Origin: a virus
DNA: 64,000 nucleotides
Direction: 5' to 3' (one strand)
Virus record (IMG/VR): IMGVR_UViG_3300017963_000003
Coordinates: 1 to 64,000 of that record
A program made the translations under genes and the position numbers. The notes under the pieces are model-generated. The model was not told where the DNA came from and made no database searches. It saw only the letters and a program-made list of their open reading frames with translations. Every line of letters begins with the position of its first letter. Positions within the stretch are counted from its first letter, which is position 1. Positions 35,843-47,869 of this stretch are shown piece by piece.

Positions 35843-38353
35843 CTAACCCTTCGCGTTCTCTGACAAAAGCCTCGCGTAGTTGAACGGCGTCTCTCCTCCG
35901 AAATGCTGAAAGTCCTCTAGCTTAGGGGAAGTCCCTTCCTTGTAGACGCCTTTCCACCCCCTAGCCAGATTAACGTTAACCGTCGTATCGCAAGCGCTGT
36001 TGACGACCATGCTGTGCTGACAACTAACGATATTCGCCACGTAGTTCCTCTGCCTCCAGTACAACGGACGGTTCACCATGAGTCCAAAATGAGGGAGAGT
36101 CTGTAACCCGATATTACGAGCCTCCGCATTCGTCTTCCTTAGCTCCACCGCAGCAAAAAGACGGGCAGCCTCTTCAGAAGTGACCTCCGTCCAAGGACCT
36201 TTATCAGCTGCGGGGCGTACACCAAGCAGAGGAACAAGGCCGTGGGCTGCCGCCCACTGAAAGCGCCGAGAGTTGATGTCGTTGGCCTCTTCAACACGAG
36301 CGATGTTGTTCGGAGCTATTCGAGCCAACGTCTTGAGACCGTTATCGTTCAGCGAACTGCTGAAACCGAAGGTTTCGTGACGGTTAATAGTAAAGTAGTC
36401 AGAATAGTTAAAATTCTGCGCGTTGTAGGAACCACCGAACCCCTCCAACGTGAGCTGAAGATCCGAAGACAGCTCCATCATCTCCAAAATATCAGACTCC
36501 GTGTAGTCCCCGCTCGCAGCAGACCACTCCGACACCCATTCACGAAGCGGCTTCTCCCCTTCCTTTCGCAAACCCTGCAAACCTGCACGACCTTCGATCT
36601 CCGCATTCGTGATATGGGAGTCCTCTCCATCGAACATCCAAGGATCGAAATCGTAGAAAGGCATCTCGAAAACAAGGTCCCCCCTACCTGTGGAGTAAAA
36701 ACAGAACTGAATCTGCTCCGCCAAATCGTAAATGTAGGTAAGACGGTCACGAAAATCGGAATGGAGATCCCCCTGAGCCCCACTAACCATCTCGTTCATT
36801 ACGCCTGCGGAGAGACCGAGACCCAGACGCGTCGGGGCCACGTAAAACACACGACCACCCCCTACTGGATAGGTGTCTATGTCCGACCCAATGATGCTGA
36901 CAACGTCCACCACGCCGAGACCGTCAGAATTAGGGGCGGAGGTCTCGTCGGCAGCCATATCGGTTAGATCGTCAACACGAACCCGACTGTGCAACATGTC
37001 GTTGAGCTGACGCAGATTCCCCATCGTGATCGGACTTCCTGTGGCCTTCTCTAAACCGTCTAGCTCGGCGTCCCCGATGTAATATGCGTACACCCCCTTG
37101 GACTCTTCTTTGCGCTTAAACGTTACCCCGTGAGGAGCATACACCGGAGGGAAGAAGGACCCCTGGAACCTACTCTGCTTAGCGCCAATCAGGTACTCTT
37201 CCAAGGATGACCGCCGTTGAGTATCGGTCATCTTGTTGATTTCATCCAAACTCTTATAAACACCGTGCTTCTGAAGGAAGACCTGCACCTCTGAGTCACT
37301 GAAAGCCTCTACAGCCCGATTGGTCAACTCAGTCATGACCCCCTCGTAGGCTTCCTTACCGAAGAAGAGCATCTCCAGAATCTCGTACGCAGTAAAATGA
37401 GCAAATAGCTCCTGATACGCAACCCAGTTCAACGCGGCTACGTCGCCCGCACCCTCGAACGCAGGATCAAACTTGAAGATCTCCTGAATGCTCTTGTCGA
37501 GCCCAGCGTCTACGTTGAGCTGGAAATAAGAGTACCGAAGTGTTTTACTGACGTCAGTCCCTACGATAGTAACCGTGGACTCCTGATTCACCCCAACGTC
37601 TTCGGTGAAACCGTCTACAAAGCCGGAAAACATCCAGTACCATATGGTCGGGACAAAAGGATCGCGAAACGCAATTCTTATAGGATCGTTCGGATGGAAG
37701 ATGCAGTCACCTTCAGTAAAAGGGTACGTGTATATGTAATCTTCCAAAAAAATAGGAAACGCGTCCCAATCCTCTCCCAAGGCGTCTATGACCTTCTGAG
37801 ACTCCGGGGCATACTGCGTGGCCTTCTTTTCCACTACCGTCTTCTTTATGGAATCGGGGACAGAACCCTCCTCCCAGTTCTCCTGGAACCAACCCGAGGC
37901 AGCTCTCAACTCGTCATTGAATGCGCTAACCACGTCCACAAAAGACTGCCCCACCTGCTCATTGGCGAATGCCCCAAAAAAAGCCTCTAGTACATCTACG
38001 TCCTCCCCCGCTTCGTCGCGAAAGTACTGCTGCAACCCTGCGAAGAGGGTAACGTTGTCTTTAAGGTAGTTGACAAGCTGTTCCCGGCTGTCGCTAAGCG
38101 CAACCATATCGGTATGATCGATGATGTATTTGTCCAACGGGTTATGCAGAGTGATTGAACACGTAGAAGGAGCGCGATCCATGCTGCCCCCGGATTGGTT
38201 GACACGCACGTCTATAACGTCCCCCGACACCTCCTGCCCGTAAATGAAAACACGGAACGCCGGAAAAGCGGCGCGGTAGATGCCTTCTTGAGACGAGAGG
38301 ACCGACTGCTCCGTCCAGAGTTTTTCACCCAGTTTACCCAGTTCAACCATCAC
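35843..38353 (-). CDS. Baseplate hub (gp27/gpD-like) with large insertions
   Basis: STCSITLHNP, DPIRIAF..FSGFVD..T..V..ESTVTIVGTD, FYSTGRGDLVFEMP, RPLY; located between the tube initiator and the spike. Confidence 0.75.
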   Translation of the reverse strand: MMVELGKLGEKLWTEQSVLSSQEGIYRAAFPAFRVFIYGQEVSGDVIDVRVNQSGGSMDRAPSTCSITLHNPLDKYIIDHTDMVALSDSREQLVNYLKDNVTLFAGLQQYFRDEAGEDVDVLEAFFGAFANEQVGQSFVDVVSAFNDELRAASGWFQENWEEGSVPDSIKKTVVEKKATQYAPESQKVIDALGEDWDAFPIFLEDYIYTYPFTEGDCIFHPNDPIRIAFRDPFVPTIWYWMFSGFVDGFTEDVGVNQESTVTIVGTDVSKTLRYSYFQLNVDAGLDKSIQEIFKFDPAFEGAGDVAALNWVAYQELFAHFTAYEILEMLFFGKEAYEGVMTELTNRAVEAFSDSEVQVFLQKHGVYKSLDEINKMTDTQRRSSLEEYLIGAKQSRFQGSFFPPVYAPHGVTFKRKEESKGVYAYYIGDAELDGLEKATGSPITMGNLRQLNDMLHSRVRVDDLTDMAADETSAPNSDGLGVVDVVSIIGSDIDTYPVGGGRVFYVAPTRLGLGLSAGVMNEMVSGAQGDLHSDFRDRLTYIYDLAEQIQFCFYSTGRGDLVFEMPFYDFDPWMFDGEDSHITNAEIEGRAGLQGLRKEGEKPLREWVSEWSAASGDYTESDILEMMELSSDLQLTLEGFGGSYNAQNFNYSDYFTINRHETFGFSSSLNDNGLKTLARIAPNNIARVEEANDINSRRFQWAAAHGLVPLLGVRPAADKGPWTEVTSEEAARLFAAVELRKTNAEARNIGLQTLPHFGLMVNRPLYWRQRNYVANIVSCQHSMVVNSACDTTVNVNLARGWKGVYKEGTSPKLEDFQHFGGETPFNYARLLSENAKG

Positions 38354-39102
38354 ACCAACTCGTTAAAAAACTCAGTCCCCAGCGTGAGGGAAATGTACCT
38401 AAAAATGTCATCCATTGAAGGAATCGTTTCTGTCGCCACGAAAGAAAAAGAGTACGTCTTGCTGAAAGGGTTAGCCGCGTCGTCGGTAAACTCCAGCACA
38501 CGGTCAAAATGACCGATGAACTGAATCAACGCATTGGCCAACATAGGGCTACTGTACATGAAATAAAAACGATTAGGGTACCCCCCGAACGGATCAATAA
38601 CAGGCTCCCGCGTGAGGCTGTACAGGTTCCAGAAGTTCACGAGCTTCGAAGCACCTTGCAACGCCTCGATATCAAGCCCCTCCTGGTTCGTGACCGACTT
38701 CACCCAGTCCCGGAACTTCTTGATATTCTCAGAGAGATACTTGCTGTTGCGCTGCATCCCAGTACGGATGTTGATGTTCCCCGTCGCCCCAGCAAAACTG
38801 ATGTTGATGACGTCGTTGTTGCGACCCTTCGCGTTCGTCCAGTGATAGAACACAGCACCGGACTGCGTATCTCGCCTCGTAATCCTCTTGTTCTGCGAAA
38901 AGGTCACAGTCTCCGGATTCATCTTCATGCGCACAGGATCAATGCCGTTGTTCATACGTTGATCCGAAGTGAACATAAAAGGAACTCGATACGCAACATC
39001 CTCGTAGGGGTTGAGTATCCGATCAAGAATACGTTCTGTAGAAGGTGTAGGAGTCGTCTCCCCACCAAACGTATTACGCAAATTTTCCAAAAATGTCGCC
39101 AT
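38350..39102 (-). CDS. Tail tube initiator / baseplate protein (gp48/gp54-like)
   Basis: MKMNPETVTFSQNK..TR..TQSG, ISFAGATG, FIGHF...FTDDAANPFSKTYSFSF; directly after the tape measures. Confidence 0.65.
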   Translation of the reverse strand: MATFLENLRNTFGGETTPTPSTERILDRILNPYEDVAYRVPFMFTSDQRMNNGIDPVRMKMNPETVTFSQNKRITRRDTQSGAVFYHWTNAKGRNNDVINISFAGATGNINIRTGMQRNSKYLSENIKKFRDWVKSVTNQEGLDIEALQGASKLVNFWNLYSLTREPVIDPFGGYPNRFYFMYSSPMLANALIQFIGHFDRVLEFTDDAANPFSKTYSFSFVATETIPSMDDIFRYISLTLGTEFFNELV

Positions 39103-39110
39103 TACCTACC

Positions 39111-41906
39111 TCAGCCCGGAGCGAGCCCCAGCGCAGCAAGCTGGTTAGCCTGCTCCCCTTGGCGCTTCTTGGTTCGCTCTCGATGTTGCTTTCCGGTTGC
39201 CCATTCACGCGCCTCGCGACCAGCAGCGGTATCAGCTCCTGGCCTCCAGAAGAGGGCACGCTCGTAGTTCCGTCCTCCAGAAGGAATGGAACCTAAGAGA
39301 CCCCCACCCCTCATGAACGGCGGAAGTCCCTCGCCCTCGTTGGCGTGAATGAACCCCGTCGCACCCTTCGTCCAGTCCTGTGTCCCGGAATCACCTCTCA
39401 AGATGCTGCGCGCGAAATCAATCGTAGCCTGCGAGGGGCGACGGCGCGTAGCGTACTGGCGGTTGTACCGCTTATTGTTGTTCTGCTTCCCCCACCCCTT
39501 ACCGGAAGTGGCCTTGTTCTTGAGAGCACCCCCACCCCTGCCCTTGGCACGATTGATCAGAGTGTGCGCGATACCTACCAGCTCCTTCTTGCGCGCAGGA
39601 CTGTACCCTCCAGCTTCGCTCTGAAGGACACGAGCCAGCGCCTCCACGTCGTCCCCGGTGTACTTGCCCTCACTGGCAAGAGCCATACTGCTGAACTCTC
39701 CCTCCAGCTCCGCTTCCTCGGAAGCGAAGGAAAGCCCACAACGAGGGCAGTTGCCGCCGATCTCGAATGAAATGTTGCCCTGGGTGTCTACACCGCCCAC
39801 TTCGAGAGTGACTCCGCCTCCAGCCCACGGGCCGTCCCATTCCGACTGCGCAGCCTGAGGGTCCTTCTTTACCGAAGCAGGTGCCTTCGCCATCTGCTTG
39901 GGAGCCATCGAAGATTGACCCGACTGGAGCGATGCCACGGGGATCTGCACCACTTGAGACGGAGCGAACGCGTTGCCCGCACCCCGACCCTTGGTACCCG
40001 GCATCGATCTGAGTCGAGAAGACGCAGGATCGAAGTTCCAGGCCTCCTGGAGGGTCTTCATCGAGGTCCCCAGGACGTCAGAACCCATGCGCTTCATCGC
40101 CTTTGTCATCTGGGACAGACCCCGGTTCATCTTGCGCTTGTGCTCTTCCGTGTTCCCGAACAAGGCGTTGATGTCAGCCGCCAACCGATTATTGTCCTGC
40201 TGATCGCCGCTGATGCCGTTCACAATGAACTCAGGGAGGGCCTTGAAGAACGCAATCAGCCACGACACGGCCTGGATGACCATGCCCATGATACCCTGCC
40301 CTACCTTGGCCAGTCCCTTCATCCACGAGTTCATCGTGCGCTCGAATTTGCTGCGCTTGGTGGCCTCCACGCCAAACGACTTGGACAGGATCTCGGAATT
40401 CTGCTTGGCCGCCGTGGCTGCCTCTACGGTCTTCCCCTCCTTCATCTTGGAACCGATCTCGGCTATCAGACGGGCACCCTCAAACCCGAGACCCATCTGC
40501 TTCTCCATGTAGAACCGCGCGGTCTCCTCGTCCCCTCCAGTGGCCTCCATGGCGATGTCGTAGACGGCCTCGACGATTCGCGTGACTTCTCCACTGTTGT
40601 TGCCCTCGGCAACACGGCGGAATGCGTCCATCATCTTCTGCCGTGCTTCGAGTCCTCGACCGTAGCCGAGCCGTTCCCCGAGAATGATCTTCCAGGAATC
40701 CGACATCTTGGCGATCCCAGACGCCATCTGCTGTATCCCCATCGCGGCCTGCTTTCCCGCGAACTGCTTGGGAACACCCATCTTGGAGAACTGCTCCGTA
40801 ACGTGCGAGTAGATGTCCACGACGTTATCGATGTCGTACCCCATCTTGGCCAGCTCCTTGCCAGCATCCTCCACGTTCTTCACGTACTGCATCGCACCGA
40901 TACCGGAATCCCGACCCACCATGTACATCCGGGTCAAGGACTCCCTGGCCTCGTCAGTGGTCTTGCCGTAGTCGGCCATCAGGCCCACCATCCGCTTAGC
41001 GCTCTCCCCACCTCCCAGCTCGAACATCTTGTCCAGAGCCAGAGTCACCGTGACGGCACTGCTGTGGACGCCCTTGAGCCGCGTATCGACAGTCCGCGTC
41101 ATCTGATCGACGCTGACACCGCCGTCGACAAAAGCCTGGGCAACCGACTGAATCTGTTCCCGGTTGATCCCCATGTACTGCTGCAACGACTCCTGGATCG
41201 AGGACAGGTGACGAGTTCCAGAACGTACAGCCCCCTTCACCCCGTCATCGTAGGCGGCGATGAGGATGTTCTTCATCTCCCCGGCCTGGGCACGAACCCT
41301 GTCGCGGTCCATGTAGCCGTGGATCATGATGCCGATACCACCCGCTGCAAGGGCCTTCCACTTCGGCACCTTGAGCTTCTGCATCATGCCGCCGATCTTA
41401 CCCTTCAGCGTCCTCCACTCTGACCGAACCACCTGCTTGGACTTGTTGGCCGCCCAAGCACGCGCACCGCTCTTCTTACGGCCCTTGCTGTCACGCCCCT
41501 TAGCGCCTCCTCCGCCGTCCTCGGCGTCCACCTGACCCGCAACAGCGTCTGCCTTGTCTACAAGCCCCCTTGCGCCCGCTGAGAGGCTCTCAAAGTCCTT
41601 CTCGGCGGCCTTGACCGTCTTCTCCAGCTCGTCGAAGGACTTACCCATGCTCCCCGCGAGCTTCTCGAACTTCTGAGAAACCCCCTGGACGTACTCCTGC
41701 CCCATACCGGTCAGCTTCGACCCCTCCTTGAGGGTGGGATCGTTCTCCAGATCCGAGAACACGGTCTTGAAGCTGTCGCGTAGAGACGCACCGAGCGCAT
41801 CGATCATCTCAGTGTTGCGCTGAGATACCTCACTGATGGCGTCACCGAGTTCGGTGAACTTGAACCGAGCAGCATCGAGATGCTGTATGTCAACGATATC
41901 GGTCAT
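39111..41906 (-). CDS. Tape-measure-like protein 3 with C-terminal SleB/Hydrolase_2-like cell-wall hydrolase
   Basis: Helical core paralogous to the two upstream genes; C-terminal DDVEALARVLQSEAGG...HTLINRA...WTKGATGFIH. Confidence 0.8.
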   Translation of the reverse strand: MTDIVDIQHLDAARFKFTELGDAISEVSQRNTEMIDALGASLRDSFKTVFSDLENDPTLKEGSKLTGMGQEYVQGVSQKFEKLAGSMGKSFDELEKTVKAAEKDFESLSAGARGLVDKADAVAGQVDAEDGGGGAKGRDSKGRKKSGARAWAANKSKQVVRSEWRTLKGKIGGMMQKLKVPKWKALAAGGIGIMIHGYMDRDRVRAQAGEMKNILIAAYDDGVKGAVRSGTRHLSSIQESLQQYMGINREQIQSVAQAFVDGGVSVDQMTRTVDTRLKGVHSSAVTVTLALDKMFELGGGESAKRMVGLMADYGKTTDEARESLTRMYMVGRDSGIGAMQYVKNVEDAGKELAKMGYDIDNVVDIYSHVTEQFSKMGVPKQFAGKQAAMGIQQMASGIAKMSDSWKIILGERLGYGRGLEARQKMMDAFRRVAEGNNSGEVTRIVEAVYDIAMEATGGDEETARFYMEKQMGLGFEGARLIAEIGSKMKEGKTVEAATAAKQNSEILSKSFGVEATKRSKFERTMNSWMKGLAKVGQGIMGMVIQAVSWLIAFFKALPEFIVNGISGDQQDNNRLAADINALFGNTEEHKRKMNRGLSQMTKAMKRMGSDVLGTSMKTLQEAWNFDPASSRLRSMPGTKGRGAGNAFAPSQVVQIPVASLQSGQSSMAPKQMAKAPASVKKDPQAAQSEWDGPWAGGGVTLEVGGVDTQGNISFEIGGNCPRCGLSFASEEAELEGEFSSMALASEGKYTGDDVEALARVLQSEAGGYSPARKKELVGIAHTLINRAKGRGGGALKNKATSGKGWGKQNNNKRYNRQYATRRRPSQATIDFARSILRGDSGTQDWTKGATGFIHANEGEGLPPFMRGGGLLGSIPSGGRNYERALFWRPGADTAAGREAREWATGKQHRERTKKRQGEQANQLAALGLAPG

Positions 41907-44212
41907 CGTGCGCCCATCCGGGTAGAGCTATTCTGAGAAACCCGTTTCCTCGATTCTATCAGAGAAGATGTCGTTCCTTTTTTACCCACAGCGGGTTTTG
42001 AAATACCGTCAGAAGACTCACTCACGTTGGAGTTCATCGTGCGGTCCTTGGCACGAGCCTCCCTGCGAACCTTCTGCGGAGAGCGGCGTCTAGACTTTCT
42101 ACCAGCCTGCGGTTTGTCTGCGGAGGAGACTGCCTTCTGGACCTTCCCTCGACGTTCCGTCTGATCAGGAACCGCCGCGTCCAGCTCCACGTCGGCGTCC
42201 GTATCGACATCGAGATCGTAGTCTCCGCTAGACAGAATATCCGGGTCTTCGTCGATCAGGTCCTCCCGAACCCTTTCCTCGTCAACGTCCATACCCCCAC
42301 CGTACCCAGGAGCCATCGGAGCCTCTACCGGGGCTTGATCACGCAAAACATCCAAGAGAGGGCCAAACGTCTCCCGAAACTCACCACCCAAGGCCTGTCC
42401 GGCGATCTCGAAACCACCGATGAGCTTCTCCCAGCTACCGGCCATCGTGTTGAAGACCTTGTTCTGCTGAGCGTAGATGCGGTGATACACCTCTTGACGC
42501 TCAGAAACAGGAGTCAAGAGAATCTGAGCCTCCCCTTTGAGGCCGACCATCAACACCGAGACCAGGTCCACCAGGATCGCCAGGATCGCCTCACCGATAC
42601 GCGCCATCCCGCGAATCAGCTCTCTCCGAGTACGGTGCAAAGAGGAGACACGCTCGCTCTCCGTCTGGAAAGCCTTGCGAAGCTCTTTTCGCTCTTTCTC
42701 GGACAGGTCCTCCAGCTTGCCACCCTCAGCTAGCTTCTCCCCCGCGTCCCAAACCAACTGAGCAGTCCGGTTCTTGACGTTCAGAAGCTTCGAAGTGGCG
42801 TAGATCCCCCGACTCCGCGACGTAGAGGTCTTGGACTTCAGAGTACGTACGGTGGAACGGATGAGATTCTCCAAAAACTGGTCATCATCCCCCTTAGAGA
42901 TGCGGCGCAGACCGTCGTCGAACCTCAGCATCAACGAAACCGCATCCGCCTCCTGGTCCTGGTACATGTCCCTAGCAAGAACGATCTTGAGCTGATCGTC
43001 CAGCTTCGTAAACGACGTCATCAGATCGGCTACAACACCTTCGGCCTGCTTCCCCGCGTACCTCTCGGACAACCCATGCGCGGAGTAGAAATCGATCACC
43101 TTCCCCGCGAAAACAGCAGCCGTCTCCGCCTGTACGCCCATTCGCGAAAGAGGATCAGCAGCAGACATAACGATGCGCGTGAAGTTACGAACACCGATAG
43201 CGCTCCGAGCACCGGCAGCGGTCAACCGAGTGTAGAACCCCGCAGCGTCATCCAACTTCATCCCGTAGTCGCGAACGAGACTCGTGATGTCCCCCATGGC
43301 CTCCGCCGTGGCGAAGTTGAAGTGCTTCCCTATACCCAGCGCCAGGGTGACGACGTTCTTCCCCACCTTCCCCAACCCATCATCAAAGGTCTTCAACATG
43401 TCAGAAGCGCGGAAGCCATTGTCGACCATCAACTTCACCGCGCCCTGGGTTTCTTTCCGACCCACACCCCATTGCCACTGGGCACGCTCACCCCAGTTGG
43501 CAAACCACCGAGTGGCTCTCCGGGAACTCGCTGAGAACAGCGAGTCCACACTACCCTCGAAGAGGTTGGCCATCTCGGACATCTCAGCACGCCGACGGTC
43601 ACGCTCTGTGTACCCGAGAACCATCGCCCCGATGAGACCACCGACAAAACCCGTAGCCACTCCCCCTGGAATCTTGCGCAGAACGCTCTGTAGCTGTTTC
43701 TTGACCGAAGCTGCCTCTTTGCCAACAAACTTCGCAAGACGTGATTGCCGCTCTTCGGCCTCATCAGTGGCGCTGTCTGCCTCCTGGGCCACCTTCTCGG
43801 TCGACTTCAGGGCCTCCTCGGCATCGTTCTTAGCCCCTGCCGTATCCGGGACCGGCGGAAGAGGTTGCGTCTTCTCGGGGGCTTCCCCTCGGGGGTCCTC
43901 GTTACCGAGAAAGTTTTCGATCTTCAACGACCGGAGCTTGTCGAGAGCGCTGCTCATGGTGCGCTCCTGTCGGTCGTACGCGCTGAGGCTGCTCTCAATC
44001 TTGGACACCGAGGCATCCGTCATGGGAAGAATCAACGGAGGAGGATCACCCACTGAACCGGAACCCAACGTGATGTCGTCCGATGCACGCATAACGCGCG
44101 CTGAAAGCATCTGAATCGTGTTCCCCAGCTCAGTGTATGCTCGCGTGGTACCCTCTAGCTGAGAACTCAGCCAAGGGAGATCAACTACGAGCCGTGGAAT
44201 ACCGTCGGTCAT
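41903..44212 (-). CDS. Tape-measure-like protein 2
   Basis: 769 aa, helical and Ala/Gly-rich; shares the GY.ERDR, GKNV..., YAG.QA and TES.RVSSLH blocks with TMP1. Confidence 0.8.
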   Translation of the reverse strand: MTDGIPRLVVDLPWLSSQLEGTTRAYTELGNTIQMLSARVMRASDDITLGSGSVGDPPPLILPMTDASVSKIESSLSAYDRQERTMSSALDKLRSLKIENFLGNEDPRGEAPEKTQPLPPVPDTAGAKNDAEEALKSTEKVAQEADSATDEAEERQSRLAKFVGKEAASVKKQLQSVLRKIPGGVATGFVGGLIGAMVLGYTERDRRRAEMSEMANLFEGSVDSLFSASSRRATRWFANWGERAQWQWGVGRKETQGAVKLMVDNGFRASDMLKTFDDGLGKVGKNVVTLALGIGKHFNFATAEAMGDITSLVRDYGMKLDDAAGFYTRLTAAGARSAIGVRNFTRIVMSAADPLSRMGVQAETAAVFAGKVIDFYSAHGLSERYAGKQAEGVVADLMTSFTKLDDQLKIVLARDMYQDQEADAVSLMLRFDDGLRRISKGDDDQFLENLIRSTVRTLKSKTSTSRSRGIYATSKLLNVKNRTAQLVWDAGEKLAEGGKLEDLSEKERKELRKAFQTESERVSSLHRTRRELIRGMARIGEAILAILVDLVSVLMVGLKGEAQILLTPVSERQEVYHRIYAQQNKVFNTMAGSWEKLIGGFEIAGQALGGEFRETFGPLLDVLRDQAPVEAPMAPGYGGGMDVDEERVREDLIDEDPDILSSGDYDLDVDTDADVELDAAVPDQTERRGKVQKAVSSADKPQAGRKSRRRSPQKVRREARAKDRTMNSNVSESSDGISKPAVGKKGTTSSLIESRKRVSQNSSTRMGAR

Positions 44213-46578
44213 TCGCTGTTCGGCCTCTTGAGGATATTCTTCTGGGCTTCCTGGTTGGCAGTCCCGGCGTCACCGGCACTGAGCACCGTCTTGCCTTTGC
44301 TGGCACCCACCTGCTGGTCCACCTGGGAGCGCTTCTTCTGTCTCTTGTAAGCACGGCGTATACGAGCCAACTCTTTCTTCTGCAAATGCCCCTCTACGGC
44401 GCTCGCCCTCTCTTCCAGTGCCTGAGTGCGCCTACTCCACTTCTGGAAGTCTTCGCTCGGTGCCTCGCCTTCTTCAGGAGCGTGCATGAGCTTCATCATC
44501 TCCGACGCCCACGCAGCGTTCTTCAAGAAGTCGACCGTCATCTGGTCCTTGACCTGACGACGAAAGTCCTCGTCCCCCGCCAGGTCACTAAAAACACTCC
44601 CTAGCTCCTTGGCAGCCGCATCCGCATCCTCCAGAGAGGTAATAGGCCTCATGCCGCCGCCCGTAGGAACCTTGTAGTTCAGTGCGTCCAAAAGGGGCTT
44701 GAAGTCCCGTCCGAACTCCTTACCCAAGATGCCGGGAACCATACCCGCGCCCTTCATGATCTGGTCCACACCGGTACCCATGTGCGCGTTCAGCGTGTCG
44801 AGTTGATCACTGATGCGACTCAGCTCGGTCTGCACCTGACCGGGGCTACCTGAAACCGCAGCGGAAACGATATCCGGGAGCGCACGGATACCTGTCACGA
44901 TAACCCCTAGCAGCCCCACGAGAACCTTGATCAAGCCGCGACCGATCTCACCTATCGCACGGTAGAGACGACGCTGCGTCTTGTGCAACGATGATACCCG
45001 CTGACTCTCCGTCATGAAGGCACGACGCAGGTGCTTCGTCTCATCCTTCGACAGCTCGGACAAATCGTTGGTCCGCGCGAGCTTCTCCCCCAGATCGTAC
45101 AACGTCGCCGCCGTACGGTTATCCATACCCTGGTACTCCATGACACGGATGGATTGAGCACGACTACGACCACCGCGACTGGACCACTGAGTGAAAAGCA
45201 CCAACGCCTTCTGCATGAAGTCGTCGCCCCCACCCTCAGCAACACGAAGAAAACCGTCCTCCCACTTCTGGAGGGCGTCCAGCGCGTTCAGCTCAGGGAA
45301 CATCTGCTGCGCCAGAACAGCCTTCATGCTCGGGTTGAGGTTCGCGAGACCTGCGGACATGCCACCGATGACCTGCGAGGCCTGATTGCCCGCGTATCGG
45401 GGATCGAGCCCCATGTCCTCGTAGTGCTTCCGGATGGTCTCCATGACGGACGCAACGTTGGACACGTCAACGCCGTACTGCTGCATCGCGGAGGAGCCTG
45501 AGATGACAGAATCGACGAACCTACCGATACCCATCGCGCTACGCTGCCCCGCGAAAGCCAGCTTGACGTACTTGTCCGTAGCGGTATCGAGAGAATCACC
45601 AAGCTCAGTAGTGATCTTGATGATGTTGCTCATGGAGGTACCGGTCTTCTGGTTGAAGTGCTTGTCCACGGCGATGGACGCAACAGTCACGTTCTTGCCA
45701 ACAAGACCCAAGTCTTTGTTGTACGTGGTCATGAAGTCCTTCGACCGGTACCCAGCGTCAACCATGCTCTTCAGTACAGCCTGCGTTTCCTCCTTGGCCA
45801 CCCCGTAGAACCACTGCGCGGTCTCTTGGAACCCAGAGAAGAACCGAGTAGCTCGCTTCGATGCTTTCGAAGAAAGCGCCTCTCCGGTAGCTTCGAAGAC
45901 ATTCAGAATCTCTCCCGATTGCCACCGAAGACGGTCCCTCTCCTGATACCCCATGACCATCGCAGCCAGGAGACCCCCAGCGATGCCCCCGGCAGTCATA
46001 ACGCCGCCAGGAACATGACTGAGCACGCTCTTGACCTGACCCTTGGCGGCGTCCAGCTCAGACTTCAAGTACCGCTTAGCGCGGTTGATAACCATCACCG
46101 AGGCCTTATCGGCCTCCTGAATCTTCTTGATCGACTCCAAAGCCGCATGCTTGACCTCGTCGGAGGACATGCTGGCCAGGCGAACGCTCTCCTTGACGAT
46201 TTCCGCCTTGGCCTCCGCTGCGCTGAGCTGAGGAGGTGTGGGGTCCTTGGTAGCGGCCCCCATCTTGACCCCCGACAGGCGAGTCATGTCGTTAGCGATC
46301 TTCTCGCTATGACGTGACATCTCTTCGAGGAGGTTGGACGTAGAGCCTACCCCGGACTCCATGATCTGGACCGACCGCTCCATCTGCGGAGTGATCGAAG
46401 AGAGACTGACATTGACCGACGCCGCCTGCTCCTGGAGAGAGACCAGCTCTTCGTCCGTACGGGAAATGAGACCCTGAAGAGACCTGCCGAAATCCGTGTA
46501 GGTCCTCCGAACGTCGTCGATCTGAGCCTGGAACTTATCCAGGTCGAATCGAAGCAGGTACTCTTCAGTGGTCGCCAT
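44209..46578 (-). CDS. Tape-measure-like protein 1
   Basis: About 789 aa directly after the tail chaperones, the canonical TMP position. ATG 46578 overlaps the chaperone stop (TGATG). Confidence 0.8.
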   Translation of the reverse strand: MATTEEYLLRFDLDKFQAQIDDVRRTYTDFGRSLQGLISRTDEELVSLQEQAASVNVSLSSITPQMERSVQIMESGVGSTSNLLEEMSRHSEKIANDMTRLSGVKMGAATKDPTPPQLSAAEAKAEIVKESVRLASMSSDEVKHAALESIKKIQEADKASVMVINRAKRYLKSELDAAKGQVKSVLSHVPGGVMTAGGIAGGLLAAMVMGYQERDRLRWQSGEILNVFEATGEALSSKASKRATRFFSGFQETAQWFYGVAKEETQAVLKSMVDAGYRSKDFMTTYNKDLGLVGKNVTVASIAVDKHFNQKTGTSMSNIIKITTELGDSLDTATDKYVKLAFAGQRSAMGIGRFVDSVISGSSAMQQYGVDVSNVASVMETIRKHYEDMGLDPRYAGNQASQVIGGMSAGLANLNPSMKAVLAQQMFPELNALDALQKWEDGFLRVAEGGGDDFMQKALVLFTQWSSRGGRSRAQSIRVMEYQGMDNRTAATLYDLGEKLARTNDLSELSKDETKHLRRAFMTESQRVSSLHKTQRRLYRAIGEIGRGLIKVLVGLLGVIVTGIRALPDIVSAAVSGSPGQVQTELSRISDQLDTLNAHMGTGVDQIMKGAGMVPGILGKEFGRDFKPLLDALNYKVPTGGGMRPITSLEDADAAAKELGSVFSDLAGDEDFRRQVKDQMTVDFLKNAAWASEMMKLMHAPEEGEAPSEDFQKWSRRTQALEERASAVEGHLQKKELARIRRAYKRQKKRSQVDQQVGASKGKTVLSAGDAGTANQEAQKNILKRPNSE

Positions 46579-47405
46579 CAATCACTCTCCACGATCACAG
46601 TCGGCCTGTCGAGGCTCGGTTCTGCCTCCACGGACTTGTCCGATGTGACTTGGACCGACACCAAATCAACGTGCTCCACAATGTGCTGCTGAGAATGCTC
46701 GCGCTTCATGTCATGCCGGGCTTGACCGATAGTGCGCGCAGCGACATCCGACAGGGAGTTTTCCTCGATGTCGTCTTTGTTGAGAACCAGAGACTCCAGA
46801 AGGGCCTGGTTGTCCCGACCACCCCAGGACATCATCCGTTGCAGCTCCTCAGGGGTGCTGTCGCACTCGACGTCGCCGTCGTCCTCCATGAAGGCTTCCA
46901 GCTCGTCGGGGGTCATCTCCACGACACCGGTATCGACGGGGCGACCGTCGTCACCAACCTGGCCCGATGCAGCGAGCTGACCCGCCACCTCCTGCTGGGT
47001 ATGGAGCTGTTCGGTACGGTCTTTGATCATCGAGAGGACGTCATCACGCCCAGTCATCACAGAAAGTGGCATGATCTCGTCAGGAGTAGGCATCCGAAGC
47101 AACCCCGTCTCCTCGTCCTCCACCGGACACAGGTTGAGGCCCAACATGCTCACCACCTGGTCTTTCACTATGTCCGCCATCAGCTCGATGTCCTTGTACC
47201 GATCCAAGTCCTCCTTGTTCATCGCCTCAAGCTCAAACACCCACTGGGTATCGTTCATCCCCTTGATACGGGGGTCCCCGATGGGGATCTGTCGCTTCGT
47301 CAAGACCTTGGCCTTGATCCGAAGGCGAGAAGCTATTCGTCGCCAGACGGGGAAGACTCGGTCCCAGTGGGCTTCTCGCCCTCTTCCGAACCCTCCCCGG
47401 AGGAT
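46578..47405 (-). CDS. Tail assembly chaperone T segment, translated via -1 frameshift as a GT fusion of about 430 aa
   Basis: The -1 frame is open from the slip site (ILRGGFGRGREAHWDRVFPVWRRIASRLRIKAKVLTKRQIP...) into the track ORF 47303-46578, which has no SD or ATG of its own near its start. Confidence 0.75.
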   Translation of the reverse strand: MLRGGFGRGREAHWDRVFPVWRRIASRLRIKAKVLTKRQIPIGDPRIKGMNDTQWVFELEAMNKEDLDRYKDIELMADIVKDQVVSMLGLNLCPVEDEETGLLRMPTPDEIMPLSVMTGRDDVLSMIKDRTEQLHTQQEVAGQLAASGQVGDDGRPVDTGVVEMTPDELEAFMEDDGDVECDSTPEELQRMMSWGGRDNQALLESLVLNKDDIEENSLSDVAARTIGQARHDMKREHSQQHIVEHVDLVSVQVTSDKSVEAEPSLDRPTVIVESD

Positions 47406-47869
47406 TTTTTTGCTGCGTCCTGGGCGTCCTCCCTACGCTGTTCGAGAGACTCCCAGAAACCCCACATCTCCTCCAGACGCTCCGGAGGACGCTCCGCCAG
47501 GTACTGCATCAGGTACTCGGCCGCGAAGTACTTCTGATTGTAACGCCCCCGACCATCGACGAGCTGCACGATCTGACGTCCCTCCTCGGTGCTCTCCCAC
47601 TCCTCGCGGAAGAACTCGAAGACAGGAATTCCGTTGATGGCGCGAATGCCGATGGACAGTGTGGGCAACCTCCAGGAAGAAACCGTCGAGATGCGCGACC
47701 CGGTGTTGATGAACGAGTTACGCCAGTTCGACTCTTCCTCCGTCAGCAGACGTATCGTCCACTCACGGCCCATCCACAGGAAAGTATCCTCGATGGTCTC
47801 GCCATCGAGTTCCCGAGCAAGGTCCAGCAACATCTTTTTGGGACTTTGATTGTCGTTTGAAGGCAACAC
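47333..47869 (-). CDS. Tail assembly chaperone G
   Basis: GTG 47869 follows a GGAGGAGGAG SD; 178 aa between tube and TMP genes; LPTLSIGIRAINGIP core. Confidence 0.8.
   Translation of the reverse strand: MLPSNDNQSPKKMLLDLARELDGETIEDTFLWMGREWTIRLLTEEESNWRNSFINTGSRISTVSSWRLPTLSIGIRAINGIPVFEFFREEWESTEEGRQIVQLVDGRGRYNQKYFAAEYLMQYLAERPPERLEEMWGFWESLEQRREDAQDAAKKSSGEGSEEGEKPTGTESSPSGDE
47405..47411 (-). promoter_or_regulatory. Programmed -1 frameshift heptamer A AAA AAA
   Basis: GCA AAA AAA in the G frame; a -1 shift lands in the T frame (102 nt upstream of 47303, in phase). Confidence 0.8.

Follow-up and report, generated by a model that had tools for sequence, protein, structure and literature searches.

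The tape measure protein is a classic molecular ruler made from a single gene, and to our knowledge every solved example is a homo-oligomer. Its length sets the length of the tail, at about 0.15 nm per residue, and the lumen of the tail tube holds three to six copies. Here we describe a locus in which three consecutive genes, named A, B, and C below, each encode a tape measure paralog. It lies in a window of 64,000 nucleotides, the first 64 kb of the 192,260-bp IMG/VR virus record IMGVR_UViG_3300017963_000003, which has direct terminal repeats and is rated complete. The source is an uncultured, contractile-tailed phage of 192 kb, and nearly all genes of the region are on the minus strand.

Solved tape measures are trimers that span the tube. 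By cryo-EM, that of diffocin is a homotrimer seen at full length (PMC11329794), and those of JBD30, T5, and 80alpha are homotrimers seen at their C-termini (PMC11445458). These proteins (diffocin CD1366, JBD30 gp46, T5 pb2, and the 80alpha protein) resemble A, B, and C in that they are helical, carry hydrophobic segments, fill the lumen, and have the C-terminus at the hub. Their three-chain stoichiometry matches the number of genes in the window. However, a homotrimer consists of three copies of one product, whereas we propose that three diverged products (23-33% identity), one of them enzyme-bearing, share a bundle.

The tail module of Bacillus phage G offers a second comparison. Its genes gp178-gp183 run like those of the window: the sheath gp178, two small virion proteins, the frameshifted chaperones gp181/182, and the tape measure gp183 (PMC8570332; NC_023719). 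The sheaths are homologous, and gp183 ends in lysin (muralytic) domains, as C probably does. The difference is that phage G has one tape measure of 2893 amino acids (aa), while the window has three paralogous genes of 789, 769, and 931 aa. Hidden Markov models (HMMs) of A, B, C, and the whole triplet gave no significant match to gp183, a comparison that neither supports nor excludes gp183 being a fused array of the triplet unit. Hydrolases are delivered at ejection on the tape measures of phage G (gp183), T5 (pb2), TM4, and phiIPLA35 too, with the domain type swapped between lineages (PMC11445458, PMC12619734, PMC11329794). There the enzyme is on every chain, in contrast to the arrays checked here, where an enzyme domain was found on the last paralog only.

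Closer in sequence is gene 071 of the distant Virus Rctr197k (KX853510.1), which stands in the same position, after sheath, tube, and chaperone genes, and is homologous to C (E 8e-13) and A (E 6e-11). Its core, measured from an N-terminal anchor to a 'PLL' anchor, is 593 residues long, against 592-601 in the window. Rctr197k has a single copy of 669 aa, however, and the 76 residues past the last anchor leave no room for the beta element and hydrolase of C. Many Rctr197k tail genes, including 071, are annotated only as misc_feature, and the sheath gene is directly preceded by a putative homing endonuclease gene (L001, KX853510.1, 14047-14934). Duplication has been described within tape measures, where it took place inside one reading frame and lengthened one protein (PMC3271669); the mechanism is shared, but in the window whole genes were duplicated, each with its own start and stop codons. 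Tape measures, enzyme-bearing tape measures, internal duplications, and G/G-T chaperone frameshifting are thus already known. Full-text literature searches found neither tape-measure paralogs in tandem nor a mixed (heterotrimeric) tape measure described, in agreement with an original prediction, made from the window's sequence, that knew of no such example. Apparent literature matches (SuMu, Streptomyces phage Shady, and a diffocin 'heterotrimer') concern other things.

Three tandem paralogs and the putative enzyme end of C

The three genes form consecutive minus-strand open reading frames of the predicted lengths. A starts at an ATG at 46578, which gives 789 aa; an alternative TTG at 46581 would give 790 aa. 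The junctions read as predicted, with TGATG between the upstream chaperone gene and A, and ATGA both between A and B and between B and C, and the ATGA overlaps are expected to couple the translation of A to that of B and of B to that of C. Homology among the three, on which the original prediction depended, is strong by both HMM and BLAST comparison. In pairwise BLASTP, A and B are 33% identical over 650 aa (E 1e-102), A and C 23% over 589 aa (E 1e-43), and B and C 25% over 431 aa (E 2e-43). A 15-sequence alignment, made from A, B, and C of the window and of four relatives, shows the proteins to be collinear from residue 1 to about 640, with 25 invariant columns. All the collinear motifs quoted in the prediction are present in A, B, and C, and the three have an N-terminal T-x-L/F-G motif in common.

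By hydropathy, A has two hydrophobic Gly-rich segments (residues 192-210 and 549-567), B has two (181-199 and 539-557), and C has one, at matching positions; the two strongest are in A and B. Several A and B orthologs also end in a short Met-Gly-Ala-like motif (...TRMGAR in B), found at window positions 41903-41925 and 44209-44230 on the minus strand and in columns ~1020-1030 of the 15-sequence alignment. In JBD30, an ion on the tail axis is coordinated by methionines at the C-termini of the three tape-measure chains (PMC11445458).

A, B, and C are tape measure proteins with a TP901-type core. We assign them to this type because of module order, Foldseek matches, ESM Atlas neighbors, and the hydrophobic segments. 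The genes directly follow a G/G-T pair with a predicted frameshift and precede the putative tube-initiator and hub genes. An AlphaFold 2 (AF2) model of B, built with 85 homologs, is all-helical, with a predicted local distance difference test score (pLDDT) that exceeds 90 for residues 190-620; toward their C-termini, A and B show little conservation and are modeled as disordered. With this model, Foldseek returned 85 BFVD matches at E <= 0.001 (best 1.1e-7), and nearly all of the top 50 that carry a name are tape measure or minor tail proteins. Among the 30 named ESM Atlas clusters nearest to A, 25 are PhageMin_Tail (PF10145), and the Atlas neighbors of A are PhageMin_Tail/TMP_3 clusters. The PDB, searched by sequence and by Foldseek with the B model, gave generic coiled coils and helical repeats only. 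A tblastn search of B against 50,697 phage records gave no match, and a single-protein scan of IMG/VR found nothing, although a profile scan did find relatives. In PHROGs and NCBIfam, the only significant family among A-C and their neighbors was phrog_985, matched by the two tube paralogs.

The original prediction that only the third gene bears a wall hydrolase also held: A and B are without an enzyme domain, and the end of C is SleB-like, mainly by way of its orthologs. The expectation that C without its hydrolase would be about as long as A and B held less well; the three cores are alike, but C without residues 694-931 has 693 aa and is somewhat shorter than the other two. An alignment of this C-terminal module in eight orthologs, among them the long L023 doublet copy described below, has an invariant W, GG, NCPRCG, E of an 'SE' motif, N, T, and H; the Glu of the 'SE' motif may be the SleB catalytic residue. 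The beta element at the start of the module (window 39735-39830, minus strand; C residues ~694-727) keeps the pattern W-x-GG ... D-x-x-G ... GNCPRCG-x-x-F in all eight orthologs, and its lone CxxC cannot bind zinc by itself.

The window's own C-terminal domain has no Pfam match at E <= 0.01. Its ortholog L023_D2 matches PF07486 above the curated cut-off (33.2 bits versus 27), one ortholog in the 15-sequence alignment matches the same family at E 1.4e-6, and the L005 copy has a weak PF07486 match on record. The window domain is 33-47% identical to the PF07486-matching orthologs. A fold model of the C end gave a weak SleB match (4fet_B, TM 0.49, root mean square deviation 4.1 Å, E 3.3). The SleB-like label comes mainly from the orthologs, and we regard the domain as a putative hydrolase. 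When the 15 aligned A, B, and C proteins were scanned with Pfam, an enzyme family appeared in one member only. At the same position, other lineages have Peptidase_M23, CHAP, or SLT instead of the SleB-like domain (coordinates of the swapped enzymes: L025 13702-15015; L013 13999-15306; L015 16900-18141; L023 14000-15427; L numbers denote related loci). Distant family members have Glucosaminidase, at positions not mapped. In the multi-copy loci checked, the enzyme domain was found on the last copy only.

Copy number and history of the family

Searched by profile, 1.84 billion representative proteins yielded 377 clusters (at 50% identity) with E <= 0.001, of which 187 had E <= 1e-30. Grouped by the best-scoring paralog HMM, the members have median lengths of 778 (A-like), 769 (B-like), and 922 aa (C-like). 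Intact triplets are present in L005, L007, L009, L010 (where the contig end cuts the third gene), L016-L022, and L028. The original prediction had named degenerate copies in relatives as a result that would speak against it; instead, the triplet is intact in every three-copy relative examined. The ratio of nonsynonymous to synonymous substitution rates (dN/dS) is 0.11-0.35 for each copy, with B evolving fastest, and A, B, and C are each under purifying selection. Three lineages have two copies (L023/24, L025/27, and L026), a short one of 768-826 aa and a long one of 887-993 aa. The long copy carries Hydrolase_2 in L023 and M23 in L025, and that of L026 has no Pfam match.

Phylogenetic trees show A, B, and C each to be monophyletic across the triplet phages. 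In a 34-sequence tree, the short doublet copy groups with A and B (97%), and the long copy with C (100%). The loci L013 and L015 are different, in that all six of their paralogs form a clade of their own (99% by the Shimodaira-Hasegawa-like approximate likelihood ratio test, SH-aLRT). Placing every enzyme-bearing copy in one clade is rejected by the approximately unbiased (AU) test (p = 0.0021); the same question put to a smaller tree gave a marginal result (p = 0.028), and in both tests the group had been named after a first tree had been seen. Because the L013/L015 paralogs form their own clade and the AU test rejects the alternative, these trees indicate that this lineage probably reached three copies independently, though ancient gene conversion in the ancestor of L013 and L015 could leave the same pattern. 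The enzyme domain is again found on the last copy only. In these two loci the gene that separates the first tape-measure copy from the second (L013 9235-10017, L015 12380-13168) is a homolog (34% identity) of the 250-aa gene that in the window follows the third copy.

An independent marker, the 836-aa protein encoded downstream, places Rctr197k outside, then L013/L015, with the doublets outside a monophyletic triplet clade, which is the same phage history as that of the paralog tree. On the simplest reading, the window's lineage would have gone from one copy to a short copy plus an enzyme-tipped copy, after which the short copy was duplicated, and the L013/L015 lineage would have risen to three copies separately. 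A second triplet, if independent as it seems, points to selection for a core of several chains, one of them enzyme-bearing.

Arrangement of the chains in the tail

How are three tape measures used in one phage? We propose a mixed tape measure, with A, B, and C running side by side and in register through a single tail tube, and we give this arrangement about an even chance. Their coupled translation would follow directly on that of the G/G-T chaperones, and the three would assemble as a 1:1:1 trimer, or as 2:2:2 if the bundle is hexameric; a hexamer would also fit the doublets, at 3:3. This mixed core would set a single tail length of roughly 115 nm. Chain C alone would end in the CxxC beta element and the SleB-type hydrolase, which would be placed at the hub end to cut through the wall during ejection, and the membrane channel could draw two hydrophobic Gly-rich helices each from A and B and one from C. 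That the three proteins share a virion, their stoichiometry, and the side-by-side geometry we infer from the genes.

Core length bears on this arrangement. From the N-terminal anchor to the 'PLL' anchor, every paralog in 13 loci spans 587-624 residues, whatever the copy number, and two inner spacings are almost invariant (94 and 91 residues). Counted from the N-terminus, the 'PLL' anchor of the window proteins lies 625 (A), 615 (B), and 615 (C) residues away. Side-by-side chains are favored by this constant core length. If a duplicated chain enters the existing bundle, the tail keeps its length, and in this way copy number could most simply rise from one through two to three. Equal core length and matching landmarks are necessary for parallel chains, not sufficient. 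The N-terminal motif common to all three and the agreement in hydrophobic positions are likewise consistent with chains that share one environment. A complex prediction with the N-terminal 212-225 residues of A, B, and C scored 0.07, which is evidence neither way.

Several points weigh against a mixed tape measure. Pfam matches of B to TMP_3 (PF20155) and PhageMin_Tail (PF10145) are below the curated thresholds (17 and 16 bits versus cut-offs of 41 and 33); the best PF10145 match in distant family members has E 2.2e-4. Core length is constant across genomes, so that co-variation in length between copies has no power as a test. The two-copy sister lineages show that three copies are not required, and in a trimer the doublets would need a 2:1 ratio despite their coupled genes. 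Finally, A, B, and C add up to 2489 aa with a lysin only at the far end in gene order, which resembles the single 2893-aa tape measure of phage G.

The last point suggests another design, in which homo-oligomers of A, B, and C would stand in series, A nearest the head and the lysin of C at the tip, in a tail of ~370 nm. Although this is the strongest of the alternatives, we consider it unlikely. The gene order does run as a long tape measure with a lysin at its end would run from N- to C-terminus, and the summed length can be set beside that of distantly related phage G, whose tail measures 450 nm (PMC8570332). Yet all three proteins have the same N-terminal motif and hydrophobic positions, though the ends of serial chains would face different partners, and the poorly conserved, presumably disordered tails of A and B are unlike a specific head-to-tail joint. 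Internal duplication is known to lengthen tape measures (PMC3271669), and one, two, and three copies could stand for three tail lengths; our literature searches found no precedent, however, for non-covalent serial tape measures.

A division of labor between one ruler and its cargo seems improbable. In this case C would most likely be the single ruler, and A and B would be tape-measure-derived cargo, held in the tube or hub with no effect on tube length and ejected as pore-forming or pilot proteins. Such a role could explain why the two strongest hydrophobic segments are in A and B and why B evolves fastest, and the compact helical core of the AF2 model might be the shape taken in the membrane after ejection, which has been proposed for diffocin (PMC11329794). 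But A and B keep the full collinear core, at the length found in C and in the single-copy homolog, which cargo would not need, and they follow directly on G/G-T and are coupled to C. Least probable, and in our view quite doubtful, are alternative cores, in which a tail would contain either a homo-oligomer of a single paralog or a random mixture, so that some virions have the wall enzyme and others do not. Equal core length and common anchors mean that each paralog could occupy the same tube, but coupling and long retention under purifying selection fit obligate joint use better, two thirds of the virions would be without hydrolase, and the pattern of an enzyme on one copy apparently arose twice.

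The mixed tape measure can also be put in a stronger form, to which we give somewhat less than an even chance. Here the core would be an obligate hetero-oligomer with exactly one enzyme-tipped chain type, which would break the threefold symmetry of the lumen, and it would have evolved stepwise from one to two to three copies, with at least two independent origins. It would be the first asymmetric tape measure, a case of subfunctionalization inside a molecular ruler.

The tail module and what the locus may mean

In the window the module runs from the sheath through two tube paralogs, G/G-T, and A-B-C to a tube-initiator-like gene and a hub-like gene (Table 1). By tblastn, the sheath is 26% identical to phage G gp178 (E 3e-9) and 40% identical to Virus Rctr197k_065. 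Tube paralog 1 occupies the place of phage G gp179 and tube paralog 2 that of gp180. Near the end of G is a slippery heptamer, A_AAA_AAA, from which the -1 frame stays open into the next reading frame (T). The heptamer and its downstream hairpin are conserved in L005, L007, L009, and L010, and the TCCTCCGGGGAGG-type hairpin and heptamer are nearly the same base for base in these relatives despite proteins that are only 40-60% identical. Heptamer, hairpin, and open -1 frame together make up what reads as the classical G/G-T signature that precedes tape-measure genes. For the 250-aa protein, the ESM Atlas gives leads only, to a tube initiator, CIS_tube, and Dit-like proteins.

Table 1. Tape-measure genes and other tail features of the 64,000-nucleotide window
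Feature	Position	Strand	Basis and remarks
Tail sheath protein, 833 aa	49012..51513	-	tblastn to phage G gp178 and Rctr197k_065
Tail tube paralog 1, 148 aa	48542..48988	-	phrog_985 virion structural protein, E 2.7e-7
Tail tube paralog 2, 201 aa	47929..48534	-	phrog_985, E 4.8e-6
Tail assembly chaperone G, 178 aa	47333..47869	-	Directly upstream in module; orthologs in all related loci
Slippery heptamer A_AAA_AAA, predicted -1 frameshift from G to G-T	47405..47411	-	Followed by CCTCCGGGGAGG hairpin; sequence read
T part of G-T chaperone, via -1 frame	46578..47432	-	Stop overlaps start of A (TGATG)
Tape measure paralog A, 789 aa	44209..46578	-	No enzyme domain; BLASTP, alignment
Tape measure paralog B, 769 aa	41903..44212	-	No enzyme domain; BLASTP, alignment, AF2 model
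Tape measure paralog C, 931 aa	39111..41906	-	Same core plus C-terminal enzyme module
C-terminal module of C, residues 694-931	39114..39827	-	Beta element with GNCPRCG, then SleB/Hydrolase_2-like domain
Putative SleB/Hydrolase_2-like muralytic domain of C	about 39267-39674	-	Alignment, ortholog Pfam matches, weak fold matches
250-aa protein, possible tube initiator or distal tube protein	38350..39102	-	Adjoins tape-measure genes in all loci
836-aa protein, probable baseplate hub component	35843..38353	-	Function by position; after tape-measure genes in all loci

What is new here is a natural series of one, two, and three tape-measure copies within one family, together with evidence for an independent origin of the triplet and with the finding of enzyme domains, variable in type, on no copy but the last. 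In the sources examined, the tape-measure genes of this family currently go unnamed, as 'hypothetical proteins', and the present assignment bears on their annotation. The family is large (377 clusters), and its one-, two-, and three-copy states make the idea of a mixed core directly testable in any member that has been isolated or whose tail genes have been expressed. If that idea is true, the bundle in the tail lumen can be built from different chains, and the tasks of ruler, membrane channel, and wall cutting could be divided among them, with one copy of the enzyme per tail.

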